Source: Candidatus Thalassospirochaeta sargassi
GTDB lineage: Bacteria > Spirochaetota > Spirochaetia > UBA9216
Assembly: GCA_028532855.1 (NCBI GenBank)
Contig: JAQQAL010000006.1
Span: 72,757 to 136,756 of the forward strand
Reading direction: 5' to 3'
Length of the DNA: 64,000 bases
Position 1 is the stretch's first letter, and the number at the start of each line of letters is the position of its first letter. The notes under the pieces were generated by a model. That model was given only the letters and a program-made list of their open reading frames with translations. It had not been told where the DNA came from and did no database searches. Shown in pieces: positions 2,358-21,601 of this stretch. A program made the position numbers and the translations under genes.

Positions 2358-2530
2358 TAATCCTACCTTTTATACGAAAGTAACAGTTGACATTCATCTG
2401 CGCTATTTTACTATGTATTTTGTTATCGATAAACAAAAAAATACATATAATATTGTAGAGTATATCTACAGGAATTTCTATATTTTATGAATGAAATATT
2501 AAAAATGAGTTAATTATAATCACTTTTAAC

Positions 2531-4051: not shown

Positions 4052-4707
4052 CTTCTATCTATATTATAATAATCCGTTATAGTGAAAATCCATCACAAGG
4101 CTGGTAAATACTGTGGTGATATAGAAATTAATATAATTTCTTATAATTTTCAAGGTAAAAACCGGCCGCTGAAGACATTTTATCGTACATTAACCGACAA
4201 TGAATACATAAAATGCCGGACAGTAATCGGGATCAAGGGCTTCCTGAGAAGCCGCCACAGTTCAAATATTATTATTAATTTATTCGGAAACAAAACAACC
4301 GGGCTTTATTTTACCCCTGACAATAGAATATTGAGTTCAGCATCAATAGATAAAACAATTAGACTATGAGAACTTGAAAACCGACTTCAACTCAAGGCAA
4401 TTCGCGAGTTTAGCGGCATTGGAAACGATGCAATTACTGTTGCTGATACACTCCGGTTTTATCCCGCCTGAAAAGAATTAATTACTGGAACCATACCTGG
4501 ACGAAGTATGGCATACAGAAAGTATAACTATTTTCTCGGTATCAACTGACGGGCACTTTCTTCGAATCGGATACGCATACACAGACTGGCAAGCCAACGG
4601 CAGAGAAAACGATCAGGCCGACTACTACGCTACAAAGCAGCTTATTAAAAACCAACGGCAATTGGACAGTATTTGATATCTGCAAACCCGAACAAGAAAT
4701 TCATCAG

Positions 4708-4797
4708 AGGCTTGTTTCCTATCGGCCCCAAGCCGGAGGCTTGTTTCCTATCGGCCCTCAAGCCGGAGGCTTGTGTCCTATCGGCCCCAAGCCTCTG
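4708..4797. repeat. Three tandem copies of a ~31-bp unit (gaggcttgtttcctatcggccccaagccg), each with a short palindrome caagcc-gga-ggcttg
   Basis: The direct repeats are visible at 4708-4738, 4739-4770 and 4771-4797. The third copy overlaps the last 6 codons and stop of the Fe-ADH gene. There are no spacers, so this is not CRISPR. Confidence 0.7.
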
Positions 4798-5917
4798 TAT
4801 AAATTGCAAACGCATCTTCCTGGGTAACTTCACGCGGATTATTTACAAGAAGCCTTGTCTGGTCCATCACTGAAACAGACATTGGTTTGATTGCACTTTC
4901 TGGTATATCAATTGCCTTAAGATTACGCGGAAGATTAACATCGACACAGAGCTGCTCAACTTCATTTATACAGTCCTGCCAATCAGCTCCCTTGCGACCT
5001 GTCATTATTTCAGCGATATGTCCGAACCGCTCTTTCATGGCTGATGCGTTAAATTTAATAATAACCGGCAGCATAAGGCTGTTAGCCATACCATGGGGGA
5101 CATGAAACATTCCCCCAAGCGGGTATGCAAAGGCATGAACGGCTGTAACCCCAGCATTCGCAAAGGCGATTCCGGCCATAAGGCTTCCAAGCAGCATGTT
5201 CTCACGGGCCGTTAGGTCAGAACCATTATTGTAGGCAGTACGAATGTTCTGTGAAATTAGCTCAATTGCCTTTACAGCCATTGCATCGCTATAGTCGTTA
5301 GCATTTGCCGATGTGTAGGCTTCAACACAATGGCAGAGTGCATCCATGCCGGTAGGAGCAGTAATATGCGGCGGAAGGCCTACTGTAAGCGAAGGGTCGA
5401 GAAACGCAAACTTTGGCATAATGAACGGTGTACCAAAGCCTTTCTTTGTTTCGTTTTCAAGATCCGATAGAATCGAAAGGTAGGTAACCTCAGATCCAGT
5501 ACCGGCAGTGGTGGGGACAGCAAGAATAGGAAGCCCCGGCTTGGGAAGTACCCCCACCCCAATGTAATCCTTTATACTGCCTTCATTGCCTACAAGTGCG
5601 GCTGCAACCTTAGCGGAATCTATTGATGAGCCTCCACCTAAACCAATAATTGCCTGAGCGCCGCTCAGTCGTGCCTTATCGGCGATGCTGTCAACAAGCT
5701 GCATAGAAGGATCGGGTTTGACCTCGTCAACAAGAAGAACCTCCTTGCCTGCATCTATAAGGACCTTTTCAATCTTATCGTAGATTCCAACCTTAATCAG
5801 TCCTTCGTCGGTAACCACCATCACTTTTTCTGCTCCGAGACTGTCGAGTGCAGCAGGGATTTCCGCTATTGAGTTTTCCCCGAGTTTAACCTGTGGTACA
5901 GGCCATATATTCATCAT
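4778..5917 (-). CDS. Iron-containing alcohol dehydrogenase, probably NAD-dependent 4-hydroxybutyrate dehydrogenase (4hbD/AbfH)
   Basis: The Fe-ADH glycine-rich motif GLGGGSSIDSAKVAA is present with conserved His residues. It sits immediately downstream of abfT/abfD/gabT in the same orientation. Confidence 0.75.
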   Translation of the reverse strand: MMNIWPVPQVKLGENSIAEIPAALDSLGAEKVMVVTDEGLIKVGIYDKIEKVLIDAGKEVLLVDEVKPDPSMQLVDSIADKARLSGAQAIIGLGGGSSIDSAKVAAALVGNEGSIKDYIGVGVLPKPGLPILAVPTTAGTGSEVTYLSILSDLENETKKGFGTPFIMPKFAFLDPSLTVGLPPHITAPTGMDALCHCVEAYTSANANDYSDAMAVKAIELISQNIRTAYNNGSDLTARENMLLGSLMAGIAFANAGVTAVHAFAYPLGGMFHVPHGMANSLMLPVIIKFNASAMKERFGHIAEIMTGRKGADWQDCINEVEQLCVDVNLPRNLKAIDIPESAIKPMSVSVMDQTRLLVNNPREVTQEDAFAIYTEAWGR

Positions 5918-6013
5918 ACCTTTATCTCCTTATAATAATTGTTACAGCACGCAGTCCCGAATAACCGAAACCTCCCACCGTTGTTCTCAATGACTCGTAT
6001 TTGTAGACTTTTT

Positions 6014-7294
6014 TCATAAAGATTTCCTGAGCTCTTCACGGAAATCCGGATGAGCAATATTTATCAATGCTTCAGCTCGTTCACTGTTACTTTTGCCCTT
6101 GAGATGAGCCACACCATATTCTGTTACAATGTAATCTACATCATGGCGCGAGGTGGTCACGCATGCGCCTTCTTTCAACCTTGCTGTGATACGGGATACA
6201 GCCCCCTTCTTTCCTGTCGACGGAAAAGCAATAATTGATTTTCCGCCCTTTGACGACATTGCTGCACGTACAAAATCAACCTGTCCACCGACTGCTGTAA
6301 ACTGTTTTCCGCCTATCATATCCGCGCAGACCTGACCGTAGAGGTCTACCTCAAGCGCCGAGTTAATCGAAATAAGGTTTTCCAGCCTGCCTGCAACAAG
6401 AATGTTGTTCGTATAATCTACCGGCTTCATCATCACTGCCGGGTTATCGTTTGCAAAATCGTACAGGCGTTTTGTTCCCATAAGAAATGTTGCTACAAAC
6501 TTTCCCGGGTTGAGGTTGTTGTACTTATTGGTAACAACCCCCTGTTCATAGAGATCAACTACTCCATCAGAAAACATTTCGGTGTGGATTCCGAGGTCCT
6601 TCTTTTCAGTCAGAAAATGCAGTACAGCATCGGGGATGGCACCTATTCCAAGCTGAAGGGTTGCCCGGTCTGGTATCAGCTCGGCAATGTACTGACCAAT
6701 CTTTCGCTCCACCTCGCCTATCTTCGGCAGGGGAATCTCAATAGGTTCATAATCAGTCTCTACTAGATAATCAACTTCACTGACATGAATGTAGGAGCCA
6801 TAGGTTTTTGGCATTTTAGAATTAACTTCCGCTACTACAACGCGGGCTGTTTCGGCTGCCTGCAGAGTATAGTCAACCGATATTCCATAACTCATAAAAC
6901 CGTGTTCATCCGGAGGAGACACCATTATGAAGGCAACATCCGAATCAATAGAACCGTCACGAAATCTTCCAGGAAGCTCTGAAAAAAAGCAGGGAATAAA
7001 ATCTCCACGGCCTTCATTTATGCAGCCGCGAGTCGCTCCGCCGGCAAAGACAGTGCTGTGCTTAAAACGGCCCTCCCACTCCGCATCACAGTACCAGCAG
7101 TCATGCAGAGGGACCATGTGGAACACCCTGACATTCTTAAGCCTCCCGGCCTGATTCTTCATTTCATTTGTAAGCTCAACAGGCACGCCGGAGCAATGCC
7201 CGAGAACCACCTGATCCCCGGATCTTACGCTTTTTTCAACGGCGCTTTTCAGATCTGTCTTTTTTTGTTTATACAGAGTCCTCCAGTCTTCCAT
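6014..7294 (-). CDS. abfT: 4-hydroxybutyrate CoA-transferase (acetyl-CoA hydrolase/transferase family)
   Basis: The length is 426 aa. The N-terminus (...SGDQVVLGHCSGVP...NVRVFHMV) closely resembles Clostridium aminobutyricum AbfT and Cat2-type CoA-transferases. Confidence 0.75.
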   Translation of the reverse strand: MEDWRTLYKQKKTDLKSAVEKSVRSGDQVVLGHCSGVPVELTNEMKNQAGRLKNVRVFHMVPLHDCWYCDAEWEGRFKHSTVFAGGATRGCINEGRGDFIPCFFSELPGRFRDGSIDSDVAFIMVSPPDEHGFMSYGISVDYTLQAAETARVVVAEVNSKMPKTYGSYIHVSEVDYLVETDYEPIEIPLPKIGEVERKIGQYIAELIPDRATLQLGIGAIPDAVLHFLTEKKDLGIHTEMFSDGVVDLYEQGVVTNKYNNLNPGKFVATFLMGTKRLYDFANDNPAVMMKPVDYTNNILVAGRLENLISINSALEVDLYGQVCADMIGGKQFTAVGGQVDFVRAAMSSKGGKSIIAFPSTGKKGAVSRITARLKEGACVTTSRHDVDYIVTEYGVAHLKGKSNSERAEALINIAHPDFREELRKSL

Positions 7295-7309
7295 CTATAA
7301 CTCCTGTTT

Positions 7310-8773
7310 TCAGCTCTTGATGTTGGCAAGGGCTTTTGCATATTCCTTCTTTCGCTGAACATCAGCCTGGCGGGCAATCATAATTCTCTGAGCCTGCGGA
7401 GAACCTGCGCCGTGCATTGATTCGGTTAAATAACCTACTGCAGCACGTCCCATTGTAAGGTTTTCGATCAAACGAAGAAGCTTCAGTCTGTCTTTGGTAT
7501 CTACACCTTCAGCCCCACCCAAAAACTTCTTAACAAGTTCAGCAGTCTCGGGGTTTTCAAGATCTTTCGCATGCGGTGCTGTAACCATAAGCCCACCGGC
7601 AATATCCTGAAGCAGACGTGCAATTTCATAGGGAAACCGGGTAACATTCTGCTTACAGACATTAGCAAGAAGCAGATCAATCAGGTAGTTTCCTGATTTT
7701 GTTTCCTTACCGAGCCAGCAGCATGCAACGGAGGAAGACCAGATAGTTTCATTAAGATGATTCATCTCTACAATCTTGTCTTTAATATGTGAAGCCCTTG
7801 CCGCACCGTTGTACTCGGCAATAAGCTGTGCGGCGCCAATAGCAACATCACCTACACCAGTCTTACATGCATAGCTTGAGCGGTGGTAACCTGCAAATCT
7901 TTCAACGAGCATTCCGGAGAAGTCCCATTCGCCGTCCATAAAAACCCTTTCTGTAGGTACAAAGACATTATCAAATACCATAAGAGCTTCCTGTCCGCCG
8001 AAGTTGGGGCTTCCTGCATCCATATTATCCCCGTCCGGATCCTCCATCAGCCTTGTGTCACATGACTGGCGACCATAAATATAGGTAATTCCAGGATCAT
8101 CGGATTCAACAATACAGGTTACCGCAAAGTCTTTATCTTCTTCAGTCATTGTTACGGTAGGCATAATCAGAGCATGATGCGAGTTTATACATCCAGTCTG
8201 GTGTGTCTTGGCCCCGCTTATAACAATGCCGTCAGGACGCCTTTCAACAACATGCACATATACATCAGGGTCCGGACACTGGTGAGGACGTTTACTTCGA
8301 TCACCCTTAGGGTCGGTCATGCAGCCGTCCACAACGAGGTCACCCTCTTCAACCTCAAGCATATATTTCTTAAAACGCTCGTGGTAGGATGTCCCATATT
8401 TTTCATCCATTTCATATGTTGTGGAAAATGTAGCATTGAATGCATCCATACCTACACAGCGCTGAAAGCATGTACCGCATTTCTGACCGAGAAGCCTCTG
8501 CATCCCAACCTTTTTATAGAGTTCTTCGGGGCTGCGATGGATGTGACAGAATCTGTTAATCCTGTTTCCCGTTAACGATGAAATCTCCGTAAGGTCGTCC
8601 CTGTAGTCTGATCCTTCTTCAGCAAGCTCATATGTAAGTGCGATAGAATTAATAGAAGCAGCGATAATCGGATGATCATAGGGGTTCTCAAGTTTTTCTC
8701 CCGCCATGTAAACATTCAGCGGACGTCTGTTCCTAAGGCTTTCACGGTATTCCTTACCTGTCATTAATGCCAT
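7310..8773 (-). CDS. abfD: 4-hydroxybutyryl-CoA dehydratase/vinylacetyl-CoA delta-isomerase
   Basis: There is strong resemblance to C. aminobutyricum AbfD, including MQRLLGQKCGTCFQRCVGMDAFNA, GGQEALMVFDNVF and the ESMHGAGSPQAQRIMIARQ tail. The start was moved to Met16 at 8773 because a perfect AAGAGGAG Shine-Dalgarno precedes it; the longest ORF runs to 8818. Confidence 0.8.
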   Translation of the reverse strand: MALMTGKEYRESLRNRRPLNVYMAGEKLENPYDHPIIAASINSIALTYELAEEGSDYRDDLTEISSLTGNRINRFCHIHRSPEELYKKVGMQRLLGQKCGTCFQRCVGMDAFNATFSTTYEMDEKYGTSYHERFKKYMLEVEEGDLVVDGCMTDPKGDRSKRPHQCPDPDVYVHVVERRPDGIVISGAKTHQTGCINSHHALIMPTVTMTEEDKDFAVTCIVESDDPGITYIYGRQSCDTRLMEDPDGDNMDAGSPNFGGQEALMVFDNVFVPTERVFMDGEWDFSGMLVERFAGYHRSSYACKTGVGDVAIGAAQLIAEYNGAARASHIKDKIVEMNHLNETIWSSSVACCWLGKETKSGNYLIDLLLANVCKQNVTRFPYEIARLLQDIAGGLMVTAPHAKDLENPETAELVKKFLGGAEGVDTKDRLKLLRLIENLTMGRAAVGYLTESMHGAGSPQAQRIMIARQADVQRKKEYAKALANIKS

Positions 8774-8807
8774 TTTTTTCTCCTCTTTTATCCAGGGGTA
8801 TATTCCC

Positions 8808-9080
8808 TTAAAAATCAATTTTCACAAGACTGATGTCATGCTCATCCAGATCATAAAAATAAGTCAGATGTCTGTGGATCAGATTGATAACTCCCGCCAC
8901 CTTCCGCAGCCCGTCAAATTCCGCAGGGCCGCCGTACCTGACAGCACTCTGAACAGCCGGGGTGTCGAGCATAATTCGCGTAAGCCCCAGGTCTGTCGTG
9001 GCTTTATTATCAAAGGTAACTACCTCAGCACTTCGATGCGGAAAAAGTTCGACAAGACCTTCCCATGCAAGCCTCTGCAC
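8808..9080 (-). CDS. Small hypothetical protein (90 aa) between gabT and abfD
   Basis: This is an ORF only, in the same orientation as the operon. No motif was recognised, and it may be non-coding spacer. Confidence 0.25.
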   Translation of the reverse strand: MQRLAWEGLVELFPHRSAEVVTFDNKATTDLGLTRIMLDTPAVQSAVRYGGPAEFDGLRKVAGVINLIHRHLTYFYDLDEHDISLVKIDF

Positions 9081-9128
9081 TGCTTTGCTTCACCAGCATA
9101 CTTTGTCATACATACAAAACCTGACAGT

Positions 9129-10391
9129 TTAACCCAGCACTTTTTTCAATGCATTCTCAAATCGTGTAAGACCATCATTCATCTCATCTTCACTTATTAC
9201 CAGAGGCGGTATCCATCTGATTATATTTCCATAGGTACCGCAGCCCAGCATAAGCATATTCTCCTCCCTGGCGGCGGCGATAACAGCCTTGGATGTTGCA
9301 GAATCGGGCTGACCGTCTTTGATAAATTCAGTTGCGACCATACATCCGCGCCCGCGAACATCGCCGATAACAGGGTATTCTGCCTGAAGCTGTTTCAGCC
9401 TGTTCATAAGCTGTCCACCGCGTGCAGCAGCGTTTTCATCCAGCTTCTCTTCTTTCATAACACGAACTGTTGCTGCAGCCGCAGCACATCCCATAGTATT
9501 TCCGCTGTAAGTTCCACCGTGAGTACCGGTACGCCATTTTTTCTGCAGCTGTTTTTTATACGCTATTCCTGAAATCGGCATTCCTGATCCCAGCCCCTTT
9601 GCCATCGTCATAATATCGGGCTTGATATCCTCATGCTGAACAGCAAAGAATTTTCCTGTTCTGCAGAAACCCGACTGTACCTCATCGGCAATCATCATGA
9701 TTCCGTATTCATCACATATCTCACGCACAGCCTGCAGAAAACCGGCCGGGGGAACCACATATCCGCCCTCCCCCAGCACAGGCTCAATGATTATTGCTGC
9801 AGTCTCATCGGGCTGACTCTGCCCCGAAAGAGTACGTTTGAGTTCCTTAATTGCAAAAGCCTTTGTTGTATCATCATCCCACCCATAATAAAACGAGTAG
9901 GGATAGGGCGAGACAAAAATACCGCCAGGAAGCGGCTGATAGCCTTCACGATAAACAGTTTTACTGGTGGTCATGGCCATTGTAAGATGAGAACGGCCGT
10001 GGAATGAACCATTGAAGACGATTACATTAGGCCGGCCTGTTGCATGCTTGGCCAGCTTAACGGCTGCCTCAACAGCTTCAGCACCGCTGCTGGCGAAGAA
10101 AAAGGTATCAAGGCCGTCTGGCATGACGGATTTGAGTTCGTTTACAAGATCGACTATGGGTTCATGGTATACGATATTAAACTGACCGAAAATCAGTTTT
10201 TCAGACTGTTTCTTTATTGCCTCGACAACCTTCGGGTGACAATGCCCCGTATTGGTAACACCGATTCCGCTTGTGAAATCGAGATACTTATCTCCGCTTT
10301 TTCCATAAAACCAACAGCCTTCGGCATGATCAACCATTATATCGGTTGCATGAGTCCATACCGAAGATATTCCGTTCATATCGCTGTTCAT
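9129..10391 (-). CDS. gabT: Class III PLP-dependent aminotransferase, probably 4-aminobutyrate aminotransferase
   Basis: The length is 420 aa. The class III aminotransferase layout is present (GxGxxxTGHCHP..., ...DEVQSGFCRTGKFFA..., and a PLP-lysine region TMAKGLGSG). It is the first gene of the GABA-fermentation operon. Confidence 0.75.
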   Translation of the reverse strand: MNSDMNGISSVWTHATDIMVDHAEGCWFYGKSGDKYLDFTSGIGVTNTGHCHPKVVEAIKKQSEKLIFGQFNIVYHEPIVDLVNELKSVMPDGLDTFFFASSGAEAVEAAVKLAKHATGRPNVIVFNGSFHGRSHLTMAMTTSKTVYREGYQPLPGGIFVSPYPYSFYYGWDDDTTKAFAIKELKRTLSGQSQPDETAAIIIEPVLGEGGYVVPPAGFLQAVREICDEYGIMMIADEVQSGFCRTGKFFAVQHEDIKPDIMTMAKGLGSGMPISGIAYKKQLQKKWRTGTHGGTYSGNTMGCAAAAATVRVMKEEKLDENAAARGGQLMNRLKQLQAEYPVIGDVRGRGCMVATEFIKDGQPDSATSKAVIAAAREENMLMLGCGTYGNIIRWIPPLVISEDEMNDGLTRFENALKKVLG

Positions 10392-10465
10392 TAATCTCTC
10401 CTGTTTAAATTCTACAAAGAGATTATAACGAAAGCCGGAAACACCGTTATGTTTTTTCTATATCA

Positions 10466-12922
10466 TTATTCTGATAAACAAAGAGCAGCCGCCTTATTTA
10501 CAGCCTCAACTCCATCTGCTGCATATTCAGTGTTAATCGATTCGGCCCATTCTCGGGTTACAACTGCCCCGCCGACCATTATTTTAGCCTTCAAGCCTTT
10601 GGATTCTGCAAGTTCAACAATCTCGGGCATTCTAATCATGGTGGTTGTCATAAGAGCCGAAAGACCTATAACGTCGGCATTGTTTGCAATTGCAGCGTCA
10701 ACAATGTCTTCCGCTTTAACATCCTTTCCAAGATCTACAACCTCAAAACCATAGTTGCGCAGCATCAGTACAACGATATTCTTACCAATATCATGTATAT
10801 CACCCTGAACGGTTGCAAAGACCAGGGTTCCTTTCTTCGTATCATCGCCGGAAGCCTTAAGTACTGGTTCAAGAACAGTAAAACCCTTTTCCATGGTCTC
10901 CGCACTTGCTATCAGCTGCGGCAGAAAGTATTTTTTCTGATCATATAGATCGCCTACCTTCATTATTGCTGGAATCATCTCATTCTGAAGTAATTTTGAG
11001 GGCAGATACCCGGCCTCTAGGGCACGTTGGCAGAGATCTTCTATATCTTCGCGTCTTCCTTCAATAATTGCGCCTGCGATAAGCTCTTCAAGACTCATTT
11101 CAGGATTAGTCGGGGCTGGGTCTGCCGTTTTTCCGGCATCAGCATCCTTCTTTTCATTAAACTTAGCAATATAGGCTGCAGAATCCATGTCCCTCCCGGT
11201 AAGCACATCTGAGGCGGATTTTGCATTCATCAGAAGTTCGTGCGAGGGGTTGGCGATAGCCCAGGACAAGCCTGCTCCGGCAGCCATTGAGAAAAAGGAT
11301 GAGTTTATCCATCCGCGTTCAGGCAGTCCGAAACTGACGTTTGACAAACCGAGAACCGTCCCGAAGCCGTTCGCAGCAGCCCAGCGTACAGTTTTAAGGG
11401 TCTCGGATGCAGCTTCCTGATTGCTTGAAACCGTCATCACAAGCCCGTCCACAATAAGCTCCTCAGGACCGTACCCGTATTCGGCCGCGGCCGCGGCTAT
11501 TTCCTTTATAAGTTCAATCCGGCGTTCAGCCTTGTCGGGCAGCTCGTTATCGGCAAGCGGTAGAACTACCAGCATTGCACCGTACCGTGCAGCAACCGGA
11601 AGCAGTCTGGCCAGCTTTTCTTTCTCAGCCGATATGGAGTTGATAAGCGCCCTCCCGGGGTAGTATCGGACTGCCGCTTCAACAGCCTCAGGATCGGAAG
11701 AATCTATAACCAGCGGTAGTGCCGCCGCCGGCACAACAGCCGAGATAATATCAAGCAGGGTCTGCTTCTCATCGACCCCGGGCATGCCTGCATTTACATC
11801 GAGCAGGTCTGCGCCTGCGGCAAGCTGATCGCGAGCGAGCTTTTTGACGTAACCCATATTGCCGGCTTTAAGCTCTTCCTGAAGACGGCGTTTACCGGTG
11901 GGGTTGATCCGCTCGCCTATTATTCGTATCGGGCTGTCGGGCAGCGTCTGAAGGAGCTCGGTTGCTGAACTCAGTAAGGATCCCGCAGGCCTGCTGCGTT
12001 TCACCGGCTTGAGAGTTTTCATTTTACCGGATAGTTCTGTAATGTGCTCAGGTCCGGTGCCGCAGCAGCCGCCCATGATGTTTACACCAGCCTCAACAAA
12101 AGATTCCGCGAAAGACCCGAACTCTTCAGCCTGCATCGGAAAAACAGTTTTGCCTTCACGGATTTCCGGCATTCCGGCATTCGGTTTAGCAACAATGGGG
12201 ATATCGACAACAGCACTAATGCGCTTTATAAGCTTCAGCATCTCAGCAGGTCCGGTAGAGCAGTTCATTCCGACTGCATCAGCGCCGAGACTCTGGAGTG
12301 TAACAGCCATGGCCTCGGGTGTTGTACCGTTCAGACTTCGGCCTGACTGGTCAAATGTCATTGAAACAATGGTGAACTTATCTGTAAGCTCCTTGACCGC
12401 AAGCAGAGCGGCCCGGCATTCCTGTATATCAATCTGGGTTTCAATTACAAAAAGGTCTACACCAGCTTCCAGCAGCCCGCTAACCTGTCGTTTAAAACCG
12501 GAAACAGCGTCGTCAAAGTCCAGATCTCCGAAAGGCATTATAAATCTGCCGGAAGGGCCTATATCACCCGCAATCAAGGGACGCCTTTTCCCCTCCGAGG
12601 CAAGCTTGTCTGCAGTCTCTACCGCATTGGCGGCTATAAGACGGTTTACTTCCTCAGTCCGCTCCGCAGCACCGAACTCATCCAGTTTCCACGGGGTTCC
12701 TCCGAAGGTGCATGTATATAGGATATCTGAACCTGATTCAGCATAGGCTCGATAGATATCAGCCGAAACTCCTGGGTTTTCAACAGACCACAGTTCTGGA
12801 CTAACCCCTGCGGGCAACCCCCGCTTCTGCATCTCAGTTCCTGTAGCACCGTCAAGCAGGACAGGACGTTCTGCAATCAGTGCTTTTATTTTATCATTCA
12901 TATTATTCATTATTATCTCCAT
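10466..12922 (-). CDS. metH: Cobalamin-dependent methionine synthase, short form (Hcy-binding, pterin-binding and B12-binding domains; no reactivation domain)
   Basis: An N-terminal homocysteine S-methyltransferase region (LLDGATGT...GGCCGT) is followed by a pterin-binding domain. The B12-binding motif DIHDIGKNIV (DxHxxG) and the C-terminal cap are present. The length is 818 aa, and the true start may be Met8 at 12901. Confidence 0.8.
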   Translation of the reverse strand: MEIIMNNMNDKIKALIAERPVLLDGATGTEMQKRGLPAGVSPELWSVENPGVSADIYRAYAESGSDILYTCTFGGTPWKLDEFGAAERTEEVNRLIAANAVETADKLASEGKRRPLIAGDIGPSGRFIMPFGDLDFDDAVSGFKRQVSGLLEAGVDLFVIETQIDIQECRAALLAVKELTDKFTIVSMTFDQSGRSLNGTTPEAMAVTLQSLGADAVGMNCSTGPAEMLKLIKRISAVVDIPIVAKPNAGMPEIREGKTVFPMQAEEFGSFAESFVEAGVNIMGGCCGTGPEHITELSGKMKTLKPVKRSRPAGSLLSSATELLQTLPDSPIRIIGERINPTGKRRLQEELKAGNMGYVKKLARDQLAAGADLLDVNAGMPGVDEKQTLLDIISAVVPAAALPLVIDSSDPEAVEAAVRYYPGRALINSISAEKEKLARLLPVAARYGAMLVVLPLADNELPDKAERRIELIKEIAAAAAEYGYGPEELIVDGLVMTVSSNQEAASETLKTVRWAAANGFGTVLGLSNVSFGLPERGWINSSFFSMAAGAGLSWAIANPSHELLMNAKSASDVLTGRDMDSAAYIAKFNEKKDADAGKTADPAPTNPEMSLEELIAGAIIEGRREDIEDLCQRALEAGYLPSKLLQNEMIPAIMKVGDLYDQKKYFLPQLIASAETMEKGFTVLEPVLKASGDDTKKGTLVFATVQGDIHDIGKNIVVLMLRNYGFEVVDLGKDVKAEDIVDAAIANNADVIGLSALMTTTMIRMPEIVELAESKGLKAKIMVGGAVVTREWAESINTEYAADGVEAVNKAAALCLSE

Positions 12923-13720: not shown

Positions 13721-15067
13721 ATGACGAGCTTTATTACTCTAATGCTGATATACACAGCAGCAGGAACCGGAATAGCAGTTTACGCCGGTCGCAGAAGAGG
13801 AAAAGATCAGGCTTCATATTTTATCGGCGGGCGCGGCATGAGCTGGCTGGTAAGCGCATTAACCTATGCTGCAACAACCTATTCATCCTTCATGATGGTA
13901 GGCCTTGTCGGGCTGTCGTATTCCACGGGTATCGGTGCAATGATATTTGAGATGACCTACCTCATTGCAACTATAATACTCCTGTCAATATACGGAAAAA
14001 AGATTTGGCAGATGAGCTGTGAAAAAGAGCTGGTTTCACCAATGGAACTTTTCTCTTTACAATTCGGAAAAGCGACAGGAACAGCCGGAGCCCTGATTTC
14101 AGCTGCTGCACTGATTCCATATACAGCAGCCCAGGTTATCGGACTTTCAATCATATTCCAAAACTTCGGCATAAGCTACGCAACGGGAGTAGCCATTGCG
14201 GCTGTATTGATTTGTGTCTGGTCGCTCATAGGCGGCCTTCGCGGGGTAGCCCTTACTGATGCAGTTCAGGGTTTGTTTATGATTGCCGTGGCAGTTGTTG
14301 CAGTTATCTGGGCCGGAAATAAATTCGGGGGCATTGAAACATCAACCTTCCCCAACAAGGTATGGACCCCCGTGTTCTTTATAAACATTACCCTGCCCTG
14401 GGCCTTCTTTGCACTTACAAATCCTCAGGTTGTTCAGCGGCTATTTATAATAAAGGACAAGGCCGGATTGAAAAAGATGATCATCCTGTTTGCCGCAGTC
14501 GGTACAGCTTATACAGTAATTACCTGCCTGCTTGGATTCAGCGCTAAATATGGAACAATGAATGGCGGCCTCAGTGAAATTACCGGCCGTGATAATGTTA
14601 TCCTCGGCCTGCTGGAAACTATGGGCAGAGGATTGGGCCTTGCAACCGCTTTAAGCATAGTATTCGCAAGCATCTCAACATCCAACTCAATTATCCTGAC
14701 CCTTTCATCAATGTTCACCAGGGATGTGGTACGCAAAACCGATAAAATCTGGTACGGCCGGGTCTTTATTGTTATAATCACTGCTTTCGTCGCGGTTTTT
14801 GCCGCAAGACGAACATCCTACATAGTTGAACTCTCTGTATCGACTTCACGTATCCTGATGTGCTTCCTGCCGCTGTTTTTCGACCTCTTCCATTTCAAAA
14901 AGGGAGGCAGAATTACCGGACCGCTGACAATTATCGGGGGAGCTGCGTCAGCAATCCTGTTCGGCCGTATTGGACTCCAGCTTAGCTCAGTCTGGACCCT
15001 TGCAGCAGCATTCGGTTTTTATTTTACAGGGGTGATTTTGGACAGTCGAAAGCTTAGTCGAAACTGA
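13721..15067 (+). CDS. Sodium:solute symporter family (SSF) transporter
   Basis: The length is 448 aa with about 12-13 predicted TM segments and an SSF-like glycine-rich N-terminus (YFIGGRGMSWLVSAL). Confidence 0.65.
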   Translation: MTSFITLMLIYTAAGTGIAVYAGRRRGKDQASYFIGGRGMSWLVSALTYAATTYSSFMMVGLVGLSYSTGIGAMIFEMTYLIATIILLSIYGKKIWQMSCEKELVSPMELFSLQFGKATGTAGALISAAALIPYTAAQVIGLSIIFQNFGISYATGVAIAAVLICVWSLIGGLRGVALTDAVQGLFMIAVAVVAVIWAGNKFGGIETSTFPNKVWTPVFFINITLPWAFFALTNPQVVQRLFIIKDKAGLKKMIILFAAVGTAYTVITCLLGFSAKYGTMNGGLSEITGRDNVILGLLETMGRGLGLATALSIVFASISTSNSIILTLSSMFTRDVVRKTDKIWYGRVFIVIITAFVAVFAARRTSYIVELSVSTSRILMCFLPLFFDLFHFKKGGRITGPLTIIGGAASAILFGRIGLQLSSVWTLAAAFGFYFTGVILDSRKLSRN

Positions 15068-16979
15068 TAATCTCACCGGGAGATTTGAGCTCATAACCGC
15101 CTAGTTTTTCAAGCTCGGCTGCAAATTCCGCCGACTGCAGGCAGGAAATGAAGGCCTGCAGAGACGGCACGTCAAGCATGTCTTTTCTGACGACAAAATC
15201 ATATTCTTCAGTTCCAACTGGAATAAAATCAAGCCCGTTTACCGAGGCCGCACTGTATACGCCTAGACCGGTATCGGCAGTTCCTGATTTAACTGCGGAG
15301 GCAACCGCCATATGGGTAGTCATCTCGCGAGTGTATCCGTTGATTGAATCAGGTGATATTCCCTTCCCACCTAGCATGTAATCAAGCAGAACCCTGGTTC
15401 CGGCACCACGCTGACGGTTGATATAGACAATTCCCTTTCCCTTGTCACACGGTAAATCCTCAACTGAAGTAATGTTTTTCGGGTTGCCGGGTTTTACAAT
15501 AAAGCCCTGGGTCCGGCCCACACCCTTTATCAGCGCAAAATCGGAAGCCTGGAAATATCGGCCGAAGAGATACTCATTATACTTTCCGTCCTCAGGGTTC
15601 AGCAGATGAACCGGAGCTATGTGGCATTCTCCCTTGCGAATAGCCATTACACCACCCATACTTCCCTGGTGTGTTGACGACAGTCCTGTATGACTTCCGG
15701 CCCTATGCATCAGTTCAGTTATTACATCGAGGAGCAGATCATGACTGCCGATACTGACTAGTCTGTTGTCAATTTCAGCCGAGGACCGTGTCAGCCTGAA
15801 CTCAACCTCTGCGCCGGCCTCCCAACCTTCACACTCCTGAGGGATTTCCAGGATACCGTCAGCCTGGACAAGACTCATTGTTATCCCTGCCCCGCGGTTC
15901 AGAGGGCTTATAACCATCCGACCTCCGACACTGCCGCATTTCACACGGACAAACTCACGGTGTTCGAGCGATGACGGTATTCTGCGAGTCAAAAAACCAG
16001 TCAGGAATTCCTCATCAGCTGCACCTATCCCCTGCATCAGTTCTATCAGAGGTTTAACCAACCTGTCAAAAATGACATAACCTGACACCGGGTAGCCGGG
16101 CAATCCTATAAGAGGCTTGTTCCCCGCCCGCCCGAAGATGGCGGGTTTACCGGGTTTGACTGCAACCCCGTGAAAGAGGAGCTCGCCAAAATGCCTGATA
16201 GTATCGGCGGAATAATCCTCAGTGCCTGCTGAAGAACCGGCGATGATTATAACCGCATCAGCCTGCTCTAGCGCTTTAGCAAATGCTTTCTTAATAAGTT
16301 CGGGATCATCTATTACAGGTTTCATCCGTAGGGGTTCAGCCCCGGCGTCCCGAACCATTGCCGCAAACATCCTTGAATTTGAATCAATTATCCCGCCATC
16401 GGTCATTTCTGACGGGTCTTCAATAATCTCTGTACCTGTGGGTATTATGGCAACAACAGGCCTTCTAAAGACCTCAATCTCAGTGATGCCGCCGGCCGTC
16501 ATTGCACCTATATCTACCGCCCTTATCCGCTGAAATGACGGGATTATCAGCTCGCCTGCGGCTATATCCTCACCTACATGGCGGACATGCTGCCATATTC
16601 TGGCCGGAGCTTTTATAACCACCCGTTCATCATCCGCTTCAAGCAGATCTTCCACCATTATTACGGCATTCCACGGTTCTGTTACAGGGTCTCCTGTATC
16701 AATCCATTTGAAACCGCTCCCCGCAGCAAGCTCAAGATGAGTCCTTTCATCTGCTGCCTCGGTGTCTGCTGAAATTACGGCAATCCCGTCCATCGCCGCA
16801 GCATTATGATTAGGCGATGAAAGAACAGCCTTTACCGATGCAGCTGAAACCCGCCCCAGAGCATCATAAACAGAGACGGTTTCAACACCTGTAAGTTCGG
16901 CTGAACGGAATTCAACCGCCAGCCGGGCCCCGGCCTCTTCGAATCTCAAATTATCCAGATAAACATTTCTTTTCTTCAT
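15054..16979 (-). CDS. MoeA-family molybdopterin molybdotransferase fused to a C-terminal periplasmic-binding-protein-like (PBP) domain
   Basis: A MoeA core spans the first ~400 aa (GELLFHGVAVKPGKP, LPGYPVSG). The C-terminal ~230 aa look like a type-2 PBP fold (GSHDLL...GTADTGLG). Confidence 0.65.
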   Translation of the reverse strand: MKKRNVYLDNLRFEEAGARLAVEFRSAELTGVETVSVYDALGRVSAASVKAVLSSPNHNAAAMDGIAVISADTEAADERTHLELAAGSGFKWIDTGDPVTEPWNAVIMVEDLLEADDERVVIKAPARIWQHVRHVGEDIAAGELIIPSFQRIRAVDIGAMTAGGITEIEVFRRPVVAIIPTGTEIIEDPSEMTDGGIIDSNSRMFAAMVRDAGAEPLRMKPVIDDPELIKKAFAKALEQADAVIIIAGSSAGTEDYSADTIRHFGELLFHGVAVKPGKPAIFGRAGNKPLIGLPGYPVSGYVIFDRLVKPLIELMQGIGAADEEFLTGFLTRRIPSSLEHREFVRVKCGSVGGRMVISPLNRGAGITMSLVQADGILEIPQECEGWEAGAEVEFRLTRSSAEIDNRLVSIGSHDLLLDVITELMHRAGSHTGLSSTHQGSMGGVMAIRKGECHIAPVHLLNPEDGKYNEYLFGRYFQASDFALIKGVGRTQGFIVKPGNPKNITSVEDLPCDKGKGIVYINRQRGAGTRVLLDYMLGGKGISPDSINGYTREMTTHMAVASAVKSGTADTGLGVYSAASVNGLDFIPVGTEEYDFVVRKDMLDVPSLQAFISCLQSAEFAAELEKLGGYELKSPGEIISFD

Positions 16980-18205
16980 AGCGGATAAACCCTCACTGCA
17001 GTTCCTTTGCTGTAACCCTCGGTATTAACCGGAATCCGAACCGAGCCTGAGGCTGACGCAAGCAGGCTTATCAGCCCGGATTCACCATGTACGGGAACAG
17101 CTTCATAGGCCTCTCCGTTCCGGCGCAGGTTCACCATCTGCCAGGCCTCACGACCGGGGGCTCCGTTCACATTCTCTGTTAAAAAAGCCTCTACCCAGCT
17201 TTCAATCGGCTGCTCAGAGCAGTTCATAAGCCTTACTAGATAGCTTCCTATTATACTGAAAACAAGCATTGCGGAAACAGGATGTCCGGGAAGGCCTATT
17301 ACCGGCTTGCCGCCGGAATTAGCAACAATAGTAGGCTTTCCGGGTTTAAAAGCAATTCCGTGACAGAGTATGCCTGGCTCGCCAAGGGAAGCGATAACCT
17401 GCTGCGAATAGTCCTTAACTCCGACGGATGAACCGCCGGACAGCATTACAATGTCACTTTCTTCCCGGCATTGCACAAGCGTCTCGCGCAGCAGCTGTGC
17501 ATCATCACCCACAACCTGGCGATGTACCACTCGGCAGCCTAGTTCCTCCGCAGCGGCGGCAATTGTGTATGTGTTTATGTCTCTAACCTGTCCAAGCCTG
17601 ATATCATCATCCGGGCCGGCAATCTCATCGCCTGTTGAAATAACCGACACAGCAAGTTTTCTGTATACCTCAACCCTCGTTAAACCGATTGACGTCAGCA
17701 CGCCAAGATCGGCAGCTGTAAGTTTCCGCCCTTTCTTCAGAATAAGTTCACCCTTTTTAATGTCGTCACCGACGGAGATTACATGTTCTCTGGCGGCAGC
17801 CGGCCTGTAGATAGCAACCTCATTATCGGTAAGCTTTTCAGTATATTCAATCATTACAACCGCATCAGCACCATCCGGCACCATACCCCCGGTAGGCACA
17901 TAGACTGCATCACCGGGACCTACTGCCGTATCCGCCGGATGCCCCATCTTTACCTCGTCCCGCAGCATTAAAAATGCAGGAAGACTGTCGGAAGCACCCG
18001 AAATATCAGCAGACCTTAGCGCGTATCCATCCATTGTAGAGCGTCGAAACGGGGGCACTAGTTCAGCTGAAGCAGTATCACAGGCAAGAAAACGTCCGGA
18101 GGCTACACTGACATCTATGGTCTCAGTATCAAGCCTGTATGAAGAAAAATTTTCCGCAAGTAAGGCTTTAAGATCTTCTATTGTAATAACATTAAGCAAT
18201 TCCAT
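16976..18205 (-). CDS. moeA: Molybdopterin molybdotransferase MoeA
   Basis: The length is 409 aa, with MoeA/gephyrin-E hallmarks (LSGGSSVGVKDY, FKPGKP, GLPGHPVSAMLVF). An ATGA overlap links it to the downstream MoeA-PBP gene. Confidence 0.8.
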   Translation of the reverse strand: MELLNVITIEDLKALLAENFSSYRLDTETIDVSVASGRFLACDTASAELVPPFRRSTMDGYALRSADISGASDSLPAFLMLRDEVKMGHPADTAVGPGDAVYVPTGGMVPDGADAVVMIEYTEKLTDNEVAIYRPAAAREHVISVGDDIKKGELILKKGRKLTAADLGVLTSIGLTRVEVYRKLAVSVISTGDEIAGPDDDIRLGQVRDINTYTIAAAAEELGCRVVHRQVVGDDAQLLRETLVQCREESDIVMLSGGSSVGVKDYSQQVIASLGEPGILCHGIAFKPGKPTIVANSGGKPVIGLPGHPVSAMLVFSIIGSYLVRLMNCSEQPIESWVEAFLTENVNGAPGREAWQMVNLRRNGEAYEAVPVHGESGLISLLASASGSVRIPVNTEGYSKGTAVRVYPL

Positions 18206-18339
18206 ACAGTTATAAAATCACAACATCAAATGAAAAACAAGGCTAATTCTAATCAAGATTTTTTTTTTACTTAACCTTTAAGCTAACATAGTTATGATAT
18301 AATTAGTAAAAAGAAACTATTACTGCGGGGTAATGCTAA

Positions 18340-20244
18340 TTGACTGATAACAGTGCCGGCATCAAAAAACTAAAATTTAAAATATCAGCAGCTGCTGTCA
18401 CGATTCCCTTCCTGCTCTTCACACTAAACCAGTTAATGCTGCAGATTTTCAATCTTGAATATCCTGATCTTGTTGTCAGACTCAGGTTTGCCGTTCAGCC
18501 TACAATTTATCTGCTTTACGGATCCGCAGCCGCAGTAATTATTATTGTAATAGACCGTCAGCTTAACAGTCTGTACCGGTTTTTAAACAACAAGCAAAAA
18601 AATGATAAAGCCAGAAAATCGTCATTGAAAATACCCTGGATCCTGATCATGGTAAATACCGGACTCTGGCTGTTTGCAATCACCCTATTCTACTTTCTTC
18701 AGGGTTTCAACACAAAAGGCGGCGTTCCATATTTCTGGAGTCTGGCCACAAACAGCATATCAGGCTGTATAAGCGCAACGCTTTCAGCCCTGGTAATAAA
18801 CCGGATATTAATCCCCGCAAAGATCAGCCTGAACATGACTGAGATCAAAAAGGGAGAACGGGATTTATTCGTCAGAATCAAGATACCGCTGATATTTATT
18901 ACCGGATTTATCTATGCAGGCCTGGTACTTGTCTATGCCGCAAGATTCTACACATTTACTGCTGCAGAAAACCTCCCTCAACTACCGATCAGTTTTACCG
19001 CGGCAATGCTGGTTACGGCAATAATAGGTCTTGTGCCGGCAATGCTGAATATGATATTTGCACTGTCTGAAGACAGAATTCAGCGCCGCTTTCTTCTGAA
19101 AAAGATGAACTTACTTACGAACGGCAGCGGAGGACTTGGTGCGAAGGTAACCCTCATCAACTTTGATGAGACCGGAGCTCTGGCTGCTGTGATAAACAGC
19201 TTTATTGACAAAATCCGCACCCTGATAATCAAAGCCGACGGCGCGGGGAATCAGATAGTTGATACCTCGAAGGATATCGAGAGCCTTCTGGAGGTTCTTT
19301 CTGATTCTACCGGTACAATGCTTGAAGCAATTAACTCTGTGGATAATGAGATGGGTGAACAGGAGGGTGAAATAAGCAGGGCAACCAGCGAGCTGCAGAA
19401 CTTCTTCAACATGCTCGATGAGCTTAACGATAATATCAATTCACAATCAAGCTCGGTAGAACAAACCTCTAAATCAGCCGAGTTTATTGCACAGACAATA
19501 AGGGAAAGCTCTTCAATTGTTTCATCGGTAGAAGAAAAGACAAATGCACTTGAAAACGTAACATCTGATGGCAGTGGACATATTGCTGAATTTATTGAAT
19601 CGATAAGGGCTGTAGAACAGTCTTCAACAAAAGTAGAAGAGATCCTCGAGCAAATGAATTTACTCAGCGACCAGATAGACATGCTCGCCATGAATGCAGC
19701 GATTGAAGCTGCACATGCGGGTGAAACAGGCAGGGGGTTTGCTGTTGTTGCGGAGGAAGTGCGTAGACTTTCGGAAAACAACGCAGAACAGTCAGGACAG
19801 ATCTCGGCGCAGATGACCGAGATGAGGTCCTCCATATCCGAAGGTAATAAGAAAACTCAGCTGGCTGATACTGCATTCAGCGAAATAAGCAAGAGCATGG
19901 AAAATGCGGCTGAACAGTTTAAGCTAATTACGAGAAATGCCCGTGAAGAAGAATCTGCGATTGAAGAAATGCTTATGACAGTAAGACAACTCGTGGGAAT
20001 CACCGAAAGCCTGAAGCATATTGCATCTGCACAGCGAAAACAGAACGAAAAAATAAAGACTGCCATTGAAACTGTGTTTAAAAGATTCGGAGGCATCAGG
20101 AATTCCATGAATGCCCACCGTGAAAATAGATACATTGTAAGCAACAGCCTGTTAAAACTGAAGTCAATAACGGATGCAAACCTGAATAAGGCTCAGGGGC
20201 TGAATGAAATTCTTAAACAATTTAAACTGGATGAAAACCGTTGA
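18340..20244 (+). CDS. Methyl-accepting chemotaxis protein
   Basis: A TM-rich N-terminal sensor region precedes the highly conserved MCP signalling domain (LAMNAAIEAAHAGETGRGFAVVAEEVRRLSE). The annotated start is TTG, and the true start is uncertain. Confidence 0.85.
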   Translation: MTDNSAGIKKLKFKISAAAVTIPFLLFTLNQLMLQIFNLEYPDLVVRLRFAVQPTIYLLYGSAAAVIIIVIDRQLNSLYRFLNNKQKNDKARKSSLKIPWILIMVNTGLWLFAITLFYFLQGFNTKGGVPYFWSLATNSISGCISATLSALVINRILIPAKISLNMTEIKKGERDLFVRIKIPLIFITGFIYAGLVLVYAARFYTFTAAENLPQLPISFTAAMLVTAIIGLVPAMLNMIFALSEDRIQRRFLLKKMNLLTNGSGGLGAKVTLINFDETGALAAVINSFIDKIRTLIIKADGAGNQIVDTSKDIESLLEVLSDSTGTMLEAINSVDNEMGEQEGEISRATSELQNFFNMLDELNDNINSQSSSVEQTSKSAEFIAQTIRESSSIVSSVEEKTNALENVTSDGSGHIAEFIESIRAVEQSSTKVEEILEQMNLLSDQIDMLAMNAAIEAAHAGETGRGFAVVAEEVRRLSENNAEQSGQISAQMTEMRSSISEGNKKTQLADTAFSEISKSMENAAEQFKLITRNAREEESAIEEMLMTVRQLVGITESLKHIASAQRKQNEKIKTAIETVFKRFGGIRNSMNAHRENRYIVSNSLLKLKSITDANLNKAQGLNEILKQFKLDENR

Positions 20245-20849
20245 ACGATGAAGAAATGAAATCGCTTTTTCACAATCTTAAAAATGATCTGGCGTCAATG
20301 ACCTCACTGCTTAATCTGCATAAATTATACAAAGACAGTATAGAACCGGAAGAACTGTTGAATAGGCTGTTTGAACGCCAAATCATCATTGCTACTGCAT
20401 ATGAAAAACTCTACCAGGAAGGCGATTACCCCTGGGTAGGGCTGATTAATTTTATCAATGAGCTGCTTTCCAGGGAAGGCAGGACCCTTACAAGCTACAG
20501 TCATAATGTGAACATCAGAAAAGAGATCCCCGACATCAGACTTCCTGTAAAACGCCTTACTCCGCTGGCGCAGATTCTTGTTGAACTGCTTTCTAATTCA
20601 TACCGGCATGCGTTTACGGCTGAGCAGGAATCTCCGACAATATTTTTCCGGATAACTGAGGAAGAAGACCGGCTGAAACTTGGATATGAGGATAACGGAA
20701 CAGGGCTGCCCGCCGAATTTAATCATAAAAAATCCAGGACCCTTGGAATGCAGTTTATCAACGCACTATCAAGACAGCTTGGAGGCAAACCTGAGTTCAA
20801 CAGCCCGGAAGGCGGCGGAATGAGTTTTTCACTGGATGTAAAAAAATAA
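20241..20849 (+). CDS. Sensor-less HisKA_2/HWE-type histidine kinase (dimerisation/H-box plus HATPase_c only)
   Basis: The H-box LFHNLKNDL resembles the HisKA_2 HRVKNNL motif. The N box ELLSNSYRHAF, the G1 box DNGTGLP and the G2 box LGMQFINALSRQLGG are present. A 4-nt overlap with the MCP stop suggests translational coupling. Confidence 0.6.
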   Translation: MNDEEMKSLFHNLKNDLASMTSLLNLHKLYKDSIEPEELLNRLFERQIIIATAYEKLYQEGDYPWVGLINFINELLSREGRTLTSYSHNVNIRKEIPDIRLPVKRLTPLAQILVELLSNSYRHAFTAEQESPTIFFRITEEEDRLKLGYEDNGTGLPAEFNHKKSRTLGMQFINALSRQLGGKPEFNSPEGGGMSFSLDVKK

Positions 20850-20854
20850 GGAAC

Positions 20855-20928
20855 TGATCGCGGCGGGATTCGAACCCACGGCCTCTTCCTCCGGAGGGAA
20901 GCGCTCTATCCAGCTGAGCTACGCGACC
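20855..20928 (-). tRNA. tRNA-Arg (anticodon CCG)
   Basis: Reverse-complementing 20855-20928 gives GGTCGCGTAGCTCAGCTGGATAGAGCGCTTCCCTCCGGAGGAAGAGGCCGTGGGTTCGAATCCCGCCGCGATCA. It folds into a cloverleaf with a 7-bp acceptor stem, a D arm, an anticodon stem CTTCC/GGAAG with loop CTCCGGA (anticodon CCG), and a T arm GTGGG-TTCGAAT-CCCGC. No CCA is encoded. Confidence 0.85.
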
Positions 20929-21040
20929 GATTTTAATACTGATAAACCATACCTCCGCGCAACTGAACTGTCAAGCTCCGTTCTGTTAAATTATTGAAGT
21001 CATAATTGGAAATTATCTGCATTCTGCCGATACTGAGAAT

Positions 21041-21601
21041 ATGAAAATTAAATATAATGCACCCTTAACATTAACCTTTGCGATCATAGCATCACTGCTT
21101 GTACTAGTAGACCAGATAAGCGGAACTCATCTTATTCCAACCTATTTCATGGTTCCGGGTAAGGGAATGTTCAACACTGGAAACTGGGTAGACTGGATGA
21201 CGCTTGTGACCCATACCCTGGGACATTCAAGCTGGAATCACCTTCTGAGCAATATGGCGCTGCTTCTTATGCTGGGTCCCATACTCGAAGAAAAATACGG
21301 ATCATTGTCGCTGTTTCTGATGATATTCATTACAGCACTGGCTACAGGCCTGTTGAACGCCTTCCTTTTCCCGACGGCCCTGCTGGGAGCTAGCGGGATA
21401 GTATTCATGATGATCCTGCTTACCTCCTTCACTAACAACCGTAACGGGGAAATACCACTCAGCTTTATCCTGATTTTGATACTTTATCTCGCTGCTGAAA
21501 TTATTAATGCATTCAGTTACGATGATATTTCTCAATTCGCTCATATAATGGGAGGAGTCTGCGGCAGCCTCTTCGGTTTCCTGAGGCCCCGAAAGCGCTG
21601 A
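21041..21601 (+). CDS. Rhomboid family intramembrane serine protease
   Basis: The GASG catalytic serine motif (GASGIVFMMILL), the HxxxN motif (HLLSNMALL) and a TM6 His are present. The protein has six TM segments in 186 aa. Confidence 0.7.
   Translation: MKIKYNAPLTLTFAIIASLLVLVDQISGTHLIPTYFMVPGKGMFNTGNWVDWMTLVTHTLGHSSWNHLLSNMALLLMLGPILEEKYGSLSLFLMIFITALATGLLNAFLFPTALLGASGIVFMMILLTSFTNNRNGEIPLSFILILILYLAAEIINAFSYDDISQFAHIMGGVCGSLFGFLRPRKR

Follow-up and report, generated by a model that had tools for sequence, protein, structure and literature searches.

We examined a chemoreceptor gene and a histidine kinase gene that adjoin one another in a metagenome-assembled genome (MAG) of the marine spirochaete Candidatus Thalassospirochaeta sargassi, within a 64-kb stretch of contig JAQQAL010000006.1 (assembly GCA_028532855.1) that we refer to as the window. 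The methyl-accepting chemotaxis protein (MCP) is encoded at 18340-20244 on the plus strand (634 amino acids (aa), TTG start), an open reading frame (ORF) whose product matches NCBI MDC7225426.1, 'methyl-accepting chemotaxis protein', exactly. The kinase gene follows on the same strand at 20241-20849 (202 aa, TTG start), with the same boundaries in NCBI MDC7225427.1, 'ATP-binding protein'. The original prediction had taken this arrangement to suggest an alternative chemoreceptor-to-two-component output. We found nothing beyond adjacency to support such an output: the kinase is kept after losses of the MCP, and the linkage of the two genes resembles that of a neutral control. We conclude that the MCP and the kinase probably, although far from certainly, share a transcript and its regulation, not a signalling wire.

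Conservation of the gene pair among relatives

Gene context could be read for 14 distinct kinase lineages, all from MAGs or metagenome contigs. Since sampling began from the kinase, MCP orthologues at a locus without the kinase would be missed. The kinase always lies in a tRNA-Arg(CCG)-rhomboid-prfA-prmC-relA neighbourhood. The MCP is directly 5' of the kinase in 8 of the 14 lineages (the window, L002, L003, L005, L006, L009, L010 and L019), and in 12 of the 14 the two genes share a strand and are no more than 10 kb apart. Conservation of the pair, which had been proposed as a check, is thus borne out in most relatives at the level of gene order.

Elsewhere the pair is separated or the MCP is gone. 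L012 and L055 carry a 200-aa class-I S-adenosylmethionine (SAM) methyltransferase gene between the MCP and the kinase. L013 has the order of L012, with a type I restriction-modification island after the MCP (2326-9235; hsdM, hsdS, a YhcG-type PDDEXK nuclease and hsdR); L012, with a kinase 93% identical to that of L013, does not carry this island. In L001 the MCP is 7.5 kb upstream, and the interval contains an RND efflux operon and an HTH-B12 regulator; across L001 and L013, the distance between MCP and kinase is 7.5-7.7 kb. L007/L008 have a deletion of the MCP, and a 71-aa ORF there retains a 27-aa remnant corresponding approximately to MCP residues 147-175 (blastp E 4e-10). This remnant ORF (L007:7796-8011; L008:3004-3219) preserves the segment of conserved cytoplasmic loop 4 and has the same sequence in the two metagenomes. 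In L011 the MCP was lost without trace, and the kinase is monocistronic, 170 nt from a divergent moeA, and has its own AGGAG Shine-Dalgarno sequence.

On a neighbour-joining tree of the kinase, computed without support values, L007 pairs with the MCP-bearing L019 while L011 branches apart. Because the two are separated in this way, the two MCP losses were probably independent. The H, N, G1 and G2 motifs of the kinase are intact in all 14 lineages. Within the MCP-less clade, kinase identity is 54-62% at a rhomboid identity of 90-93%, and MCP-linked pairs show 49-60% at 91%. Since the two divergences match, there is no sign of relaxed constraint on the kinase after MCP loss.

As a neutral control, we used the adjacency of the kinase and the rhomboid gene, which are presumed to be functionally unrelated. 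This adjacency is broken in 3 of 12 lineages (L001, by 7.1 kb; L003, by 6.1 kb; L009, by 0.95 kb), a frequency comparable to that of direct MCP-kinase adjacency, which is broken in 6 of 14. The clade is also fairly shallow, with PrfA 82-92% identical. Because the MCP-kinase linkage breaks about as often as the control, conservation of the pair would fall within phylogenetic inertia. The pair thus does not show the co-inheritance expected of a dedicated sensor/kinase module: the kinase is kept intact without the MCP, and the linkage does not exceed neutral synteny.

The kinase, the chemoreceptor and their junction

The small protein is a histidine kinase by hidden Markov model (HMM) matches, motifs and predicted fold. 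Pfam HisKA_2 (PF07568; E 8e-8, 32.7 bits against a curated cut-off of 22.3) and HATPase_c (PF02518; E 1.6e-9, 38.6 bits against 26.4), the domains of COG3920-type kinases, both score above threshold, and Pfam detected no sensor, receiver or CheW-type domain in the protein and nothing else credible. The original description of a 202-aa protein made up only of these two domains, with an H-box FHNLKNDL, therefore stands. The hallmarks of CheA (P1 Hpt, P2 and the P5/CheW-like coupling domain) are absent, and 202 aa leave no space for them; CheA P3-P4 matches the kinase model merely as a generic GHKL fold. The best NCBIfam match, well under the cut-off of its model, is the HWE/HisKA_2 kinase PhyK, over residues 3-197.

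The AlphaFold2 (AF2) model of the kinase (mean predicted local distance difference test (pLDDT) 88.2; predicted template modelling score 0.86) consists of a DHp hairpin of two helices and, after it, an alpha/beta CA domain. Its top PDB matches by Foldseek are EL346 (4r39; E 1e-13, TM-score 0.70) and Brucella LOV-HK (5epv). The DHp (HisKA_2) hairpin covers aa 11-77 (20271-20471, plus strand; AF2 helices 3-29 and 36-60), and the presumed phospho-acceptor, His11 (20271-20273, plus strand), lies in the H-box SLFHNLKNDL, in which FHNLKNDL is residues 10-17. As this histidine is just 11 residues from the N-terminus, the kinase has neither an input helix nor a sensor. The HATPase_c domain (aa 108-200; 20562-20840, plus strand) contains the N-box ELLSNSYRHAF, a G1 box with D151, G153 and G155 (DNGTG) and the G2 box TLGMQF. 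Domain searches of this product had been suggested as a check against an anti-sigma-type GHKL protein. We rejected the latter reading (RsbW/SpoIIAB) because of the HisKA_2 score, the conserved histidine on a DHp domain, the DHp and CA fold and the histidine kinases among the best matches; HATPase_c_2 was below its cut-off.

The kinase belongs to a narrow family. An initial search yielded 16 close relatives of 182-207 aa and 51-66% identity, plus one distant 228-aa protein, and a profile search added five more members. Family members score at least 234 bits, whereas generic HisKA_2 kinases linked to PAS, GAF, REC or HAMP domains score at most 178 bits, a sharp gap. The family comprises about 22 clusters, so far solely from Spirochaetales MAGs or metagenome contigs; a metagenome scan with the kinase profile returned two new close loci (L018 and L019) and 32 generic multi-domain HisKA_2 kinases. 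The H-box histidine is conserved in every family sequence covering the site, and E115, N119 and H123 (N-box), D151, G153 and G155 (G1) and G169 (G2) are invariant. Since these clusters are uniformly about 200 aa long, and their catalytic residues are invariant at just 43-66% identity, the gene appears to be under purifying selection, and we rejected a pseudogene or decaying remnant on the same grounds. None of the 120 kinase relatives listed is fused to an MCP signalling domain (PF00015).

The H-box sets this family apart. Its consensus (kinase aa 8-19; 20262-20297 in the window) is F-H-[D/N]-L-K-N-D-[L/F], so that Asp or Asn follows the phospho-acceptor histidine in all members, where generic HisKA_2 kinases have Arg (HHRVKNNL). 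In canonical HisKA kinases, an acidic residue stands right after the phospho-acceptor. With its two domains only, the kinase adds a minimal new member to the HisKA_2 family. Other phyla, too, have HisKA_2 kinases of about 200 aa without a sensor (for example, a 194-aa Maridesulfovibrio protein), and the present family, with its distinctive H-box, offers a compact candidate for a naturally sensor-less kinase core.

The MCP, for its part, is not sensor-less. Beside a Pfam MCPsignal domain (E 6e-28; AF2 model at pLDDT 84.5), it has a conserved N-terminal module that the AF2 model, hydropathy and the positive-inside rule portray as a membrane-embedded sensor of six transmembrane (TM) helices (aa 17-245; 18388-19074, plus strand). 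The helices of this region, modelled at pLDDT above 90, span residues 5-36, 54-84, 88-120, 131-156, 176-209 and 219-260. Hydropathy and the positive-inside rule predict that the N-terminus is inside and that the periplasmic loops are no longer than 16 aa. The module matched no Pfam model, and its PDB fold matches were uninformative. Residues 1-306, searched exhaustively with HMMER, yielded 134 clusters at 50% identity; because nearly all are 620-650 aa long, the module appears to be essentially always joined to an MCP output. Its most conserved parts are loop 3 (GGxPYxWSL), loop 4 (LxPxKxxLxMxxIRxGExDxF) and TM3. This module places the MCP in a large family of six-TM chemoreceptors that is recognised here, is uncharacterised and has no domain model.

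Next to the sensor module, a HAMP-like connector (aa 246-300; 19075-19239, plus strand) has the conserved motif GDL..KV.L.NFDE.G..A..IN.FI and is modelled as helix-loop-helix, with no Pfam HAMP match. The cytoplasmic signalling hairpin (aa 277-626; 19168-20217, plus strand) is modelled as helices 277-459 and 461-626 with its turn at G461 and has the tip IEAAHAGETGRGFAVVAEEVRRL. Including the tip, it aligns without gaps to residues 297-486 of E. coli Tsr. An E-Q pair at the position of the Tsr E303/E304 methylation site is kept in 8 of 9 orthologues, with the flanking consensus partly matched. At the tip, His replaces the Tsr trimer-contact residue R388, and the same is true of 70 of the 73 scorable family members. 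We considered this His as a sign of altered partner specificity and rejected it: as a trait of the whole six-TM MCP family, it would be unrelated to the kinase. Five sampled six-TM MCP relatives at other loci have no kinase downstream. P0019 and P0020 are 48-50% identical to the MCP in the N-terminal module, and P0021, P0024 and P0033 are 33-38% identical; one of the five is near cheD (L052).

At the junction, the MCP stop codon overlaps the start of the kinase ORF, as had been described: the 4-nt TTGA at 20241-20244 (plus strand) contains the kinase start TTG (20241-20243) and the MCP stop TGA (20242-20244). The TTG start is backed by homology, as it aligns with the ATG of orthologues that open with 'MNDEE...'. 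The TTG start, together with a weak Shine-Dalgarno sequence and the TTGA overlap, suggests low-level, termination-coupled translation of the kinase in this genome. The overlap behind the proposed translational coupling is real. However, both the overlap and the TTG start are specific to this genome, in which the MCP reading frame has lost its original stop and runs on for four more residues (DENR). At five aligned orthologous junctions, the kinase begins with ATG, 8-12 nt beyond the MCP stop codon, and a Shine-Dalgarno sequence can be recognised in three or four of them. A promoter and terminator scan of 18100-21100 returned no more candidates than shuffled sequence, so that no internal kinase promoter or terminator can be claimed there.

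Neighbouring genes and competing readings

Downstream of the pair lies the only tRNA gene of the window, tRNA-Arg(CCG) (ARAGORN; 20855-20928, minus strand), which is convergent with the kinase gene and lies 5 nt past its stop codon. Its placement directly downstream had been pointed out correctly, but it is on the opposite strand and serves as a landmark, and the accompanying remark on rare codons has no bearing on the pair. In 11 of 11 relatives scanned, this tRNA adjoins the rhomboid gene on the same strand. We considered the tRNA as a part of the system and rejected it in view of its strand and because it stays with the rhomboid gene when insertions occur. Its 3' end faces the kinase, and the insertions of L001 (8612-15570) and L003 (6962-12885) are on that side, as expected of a tRNA-targeted integration hotspot; the Pfam matches listed for these two insertions include no integrase. 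The extra sequence of L009 (10618-11567) lies between the tRNA and the rhomboid gene instead.

Upstream of the MCP, and divergent from it, are two tandem MoeA-family genes (15054-18205, minus strand; 409 aa and 641 aa), the longer of which has a C-terminal PBP_like/phosphonate-binding-type domain in orthologues. The MoeA pair, a MetH-like B12-dependent methyltransferase and an SSF transporter replace the RND efflux/HTH-B12 block of other lineages. No further MCP, histidine kinase, CheA, CheW, receiver domain or che gene was found in the window; the receiver search used phmmer queries of CheY, Spo0F and a receiver consensus.

A regulator of about 300 aa with XRE-type HTH_3, B12-binding_2 and B12-binding domains heads the MCP-kinase operon in five relatives (L002:5155-6069, L001:7030-7938, L003:3479-4384, L006:5113-6015 and L010:~7132-8028) and is absent from the window. 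At least four of the five relatives have it divergent from an RND efflux operon. The light-response signature of CarH-type cobalamin photoreceptors consists of GxxW, EH, GxxH and GxxxP elements (PMC11796333). All five regulators have these elements, and their PDB sequence matches include cobalamin-binding 8j2w/8j2y and CarH 5c8d. The regulator may thus be a CarH analogue with a different, XRE-type DNA-binding domain, which provides a lead at the head of the operon in relatives.

The class-I SAM methyltransferase (L012:9340-9942, L013:9343-9942, L055:7360-7962 and L009:~12212-12808) is of the Methyltransf_11/25 type. Its start overlaps the MCP stop in L012, and the three lineages that carry it beside the pair (L012, L013 and L055) are divergent. 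As a dedicated third component it is unsupported: its place in L009 is between rhomboid and prfA, and the window does not contain it. In L003 only, a signalling island (7032-12881) lies directly 3' of the kinase. It encodes a 364-aa histidine kinase with a PAS domain, a 113-aa single-domain receiver, a 173-aa protein that matched no family, another kinase of 284 aa, a 301-aa protein containing a receiver and a 652-aa protein with a FapA domain. No candidate partner other than the 113-aa receiver was seen near any member of the kinase family.

Under the favoured reading of a shared transcript, the MCP and the kinase would form a two-gene transcription unit. The MCP would signal via CheW/CheA arrays with methylation-based adaptation. 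Its coupling to CheA is most likely, given the Tsr-like tip, the E-Q pair and the lack of any MCP feature specific to kinase-linked lineages. The free DHp-CA core would autophosphorylate constitutively, since isolated kinase cores generally behave so, and its output would be set by the amount made, possibly together with an unlinked partner acting in trans. In this genome, the kinase level would follow transcription of the MCP gene, and termination-reinitiation at the TTGA overlap would probably affect it too. Kinases of the HWE/HisKA2 group are frequently soluble, and their outputs are diverse and often lack a DNA-binding domain (PMC10359499). Phosphate would pass, as is usual for these kinases, to a putative unlinked response regulator, probably a single-domain one.

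Several observations weigh against this reading. In 12 of 14 lineages, with kinase identities down to about 43%, the two genes lie next to or close to each other on one strand, and they have stayed together through several replacements of the sequence upstream of the MCP (by moeA, by RND efflux and HTH-B12, and by an SSF transporter). An overlap or a gap of 8-12 nt is the kind of close spacing typically seen for genes whose products are made together. Some partner would be needed if the kinase is regulated at all, because it has no input domain, and neither protein can be placed in another pathway, because genes for a response regulator, CheA or CheW are all missing from the 64-kb window. In the MCP-less lineages, a paralogue, or an MCP gene that has moved elsewhere, could still serve the kinase. 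Moreover, the sample was seeded with the kinase and drawn from MAGs and metagenome contigs only.

The most plausible of the rival explanations, although we consider it unlikely, is direct control of the kinase by the receptor. The six-TM MCP would act as the transmembrane sensor, and the kinase would dock on its cytoplasmic bundle so that the conformation of the receptor switches autophosphorylation, bypassing or paralleling CheA. Such control would account for the co-directional, tight linkage in 8 of 14 lineages (same strand, less than 10 kb, in 12 of 14), for a kinase without an input domain and for the absence of che genes and of a response regulator nearby in the window. It also has a structural model in monomeric EL346, whose fold the kinase matches and in which the sensor domain packs on the DHp-like domain within a single polypeptide (PMC10359499). 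What stands in its way is that the kinase has stayed intact where the MCP was deleted (twice, probably independently) and where the two genes were separated (twice), with a linkage no more robust than neutral synteny. In addition, no MCP trait is specific to the kinase-linked clade, as the tip and the C-terminal Phe are family-wide, and MCP-kinase fusions number zero among the 120 relatives listed. The kinase also lacks a CheW/P5-like docking domain, whereas CheWS, the one spirochaetal accessory protein documented on arrays, uses a CheW domain (PMC10653840). Slightly less likely still is a scheme in which the six-TM receptor directly gates the kinase (for example, through DHp on the receptor bundle) and drives both CheA taxis and a CheA-independent output, with a CarH-like XRE repressor, responsive to B12 and light, above the pair in relatives and a paralogous six-TM MCP serving the MCP-less lineages. 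Control of a non-CheA kinase by an MCP, if real, would contradict the rule by which the signalling domains of chemoreceptors act solely via CheA-class kinases, and would define a new input route for sensor-less kinases. The evidence points the other way, to a lineage-restricted operon neighbourhood in which natural deletions show the kinase kept without the receptor gene.

The kinase might alternatively provide a side input to motility or chemotaxis, phosphorylating a CheY-like or single-domain receiver so as to bias swimming or adaptation at times when the receptor is expressed while leaving the MCP untouched. Co-expression with a chemoreceptor, the frequent lack of DNA-binding domains among HWE/HisKA2 outputs (PMC10359499) and the 113-aa receiver directly 3' of the kinase in L003 all agree with this. 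However, no receiver gene is conserved at the locus, the L003 island being unique to its lineage, the window is without che genes, and the kinase persists where the MCP is lost, which leaves this explanation less likely again than direct control. That the protein is a Ser/Thr GHKL kinase of the anti-sigma type, or what is left of a longer sensor kinase in decay, is very improbable: the lack of a sensor domain, weak matches to HATPase_c_2 (E 0.014) and RsbW (E 0.028) and the bare NCBI label would fit it, but a HisKA_2 match above cut-off, a conserved H-box histidine, a DHp and CA fold with histidine kinases as best matches, and some 22 clusters of uniform length with invariant catalytic residues at 43-66% identity would not. 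The probability left over belongs to partners or functions outside the readings considered here.

Comparison with known systems

A search of the literature available to us for MCP-to-HisKA_2 signalling, or for non-CheA chemoreceptor outputs, found no precedent. The closest relatives of the kinase in architecture are EL346, LovK, Brucella LOV-HK and PhyK, which have the same DHp (HisKA_2) and HATPase_c core and include the best structural matches (4r39/4r3a and 5epv). Like them, the kinase is predicted to be soluble and has no cognate regulator gene adjoining it in the window. In contrast to them, it has no LOV, PAS or other sensor, with its histidine 11 residues from the N-terminus, and its H-box reads F-H-[D/N]-L-K-N-D and not H-H-R-V-K-N-N. 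It is also spirochaetal, not alphaproteobacterial, and lies downstream of an MCP.

The MCP shares with the receptors of canonical MCP-CheW-CheA arrays (E. coli Tsr and T. maritima TM1143) the MCPsignal domain, a long helical hairpin and a Tsr-aligned tip, and has its E-Q pair at a position homologous to a Tsr methylation site. It differs from them in its predicted six-TM sensor with almost no periplasmic exposure, in hairpin arms longer than those of Tsr and in the tip His in place of R388. The adjoining kinase is not CheA, having no P1, P2 or P5.

Treponema denticola CheWS is an array-anchored accessory sensor that docks by a CheW domain and senses SAM by a CheR-like domain (PMC10653840). It thus represents a spirochaete case of a non-canonical protein functionally attached to chemoreceptor arrays. 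The 202-aa kinase, in contrast, has no CheW-like domain, and the methyltransferase of L012, L013 and L055 is not CheR-like by Pfam.

In the H-NOX/HnoK and NosP/NahK systems, a sensor-lacking kinase is encoded beside a separate small soluble ligand-binding sensor, and the pairing recurs across phyla. The present locus resembles these systems in that a kinase without a relevant sensor is next to a separate sensor gene. It differs in that the partner would be a full chemoreceptor with a standard output of its own, and in that the pairing is found at one locus, in one spirochaete clade, where it has been lost repeatedly with the kinase kept.

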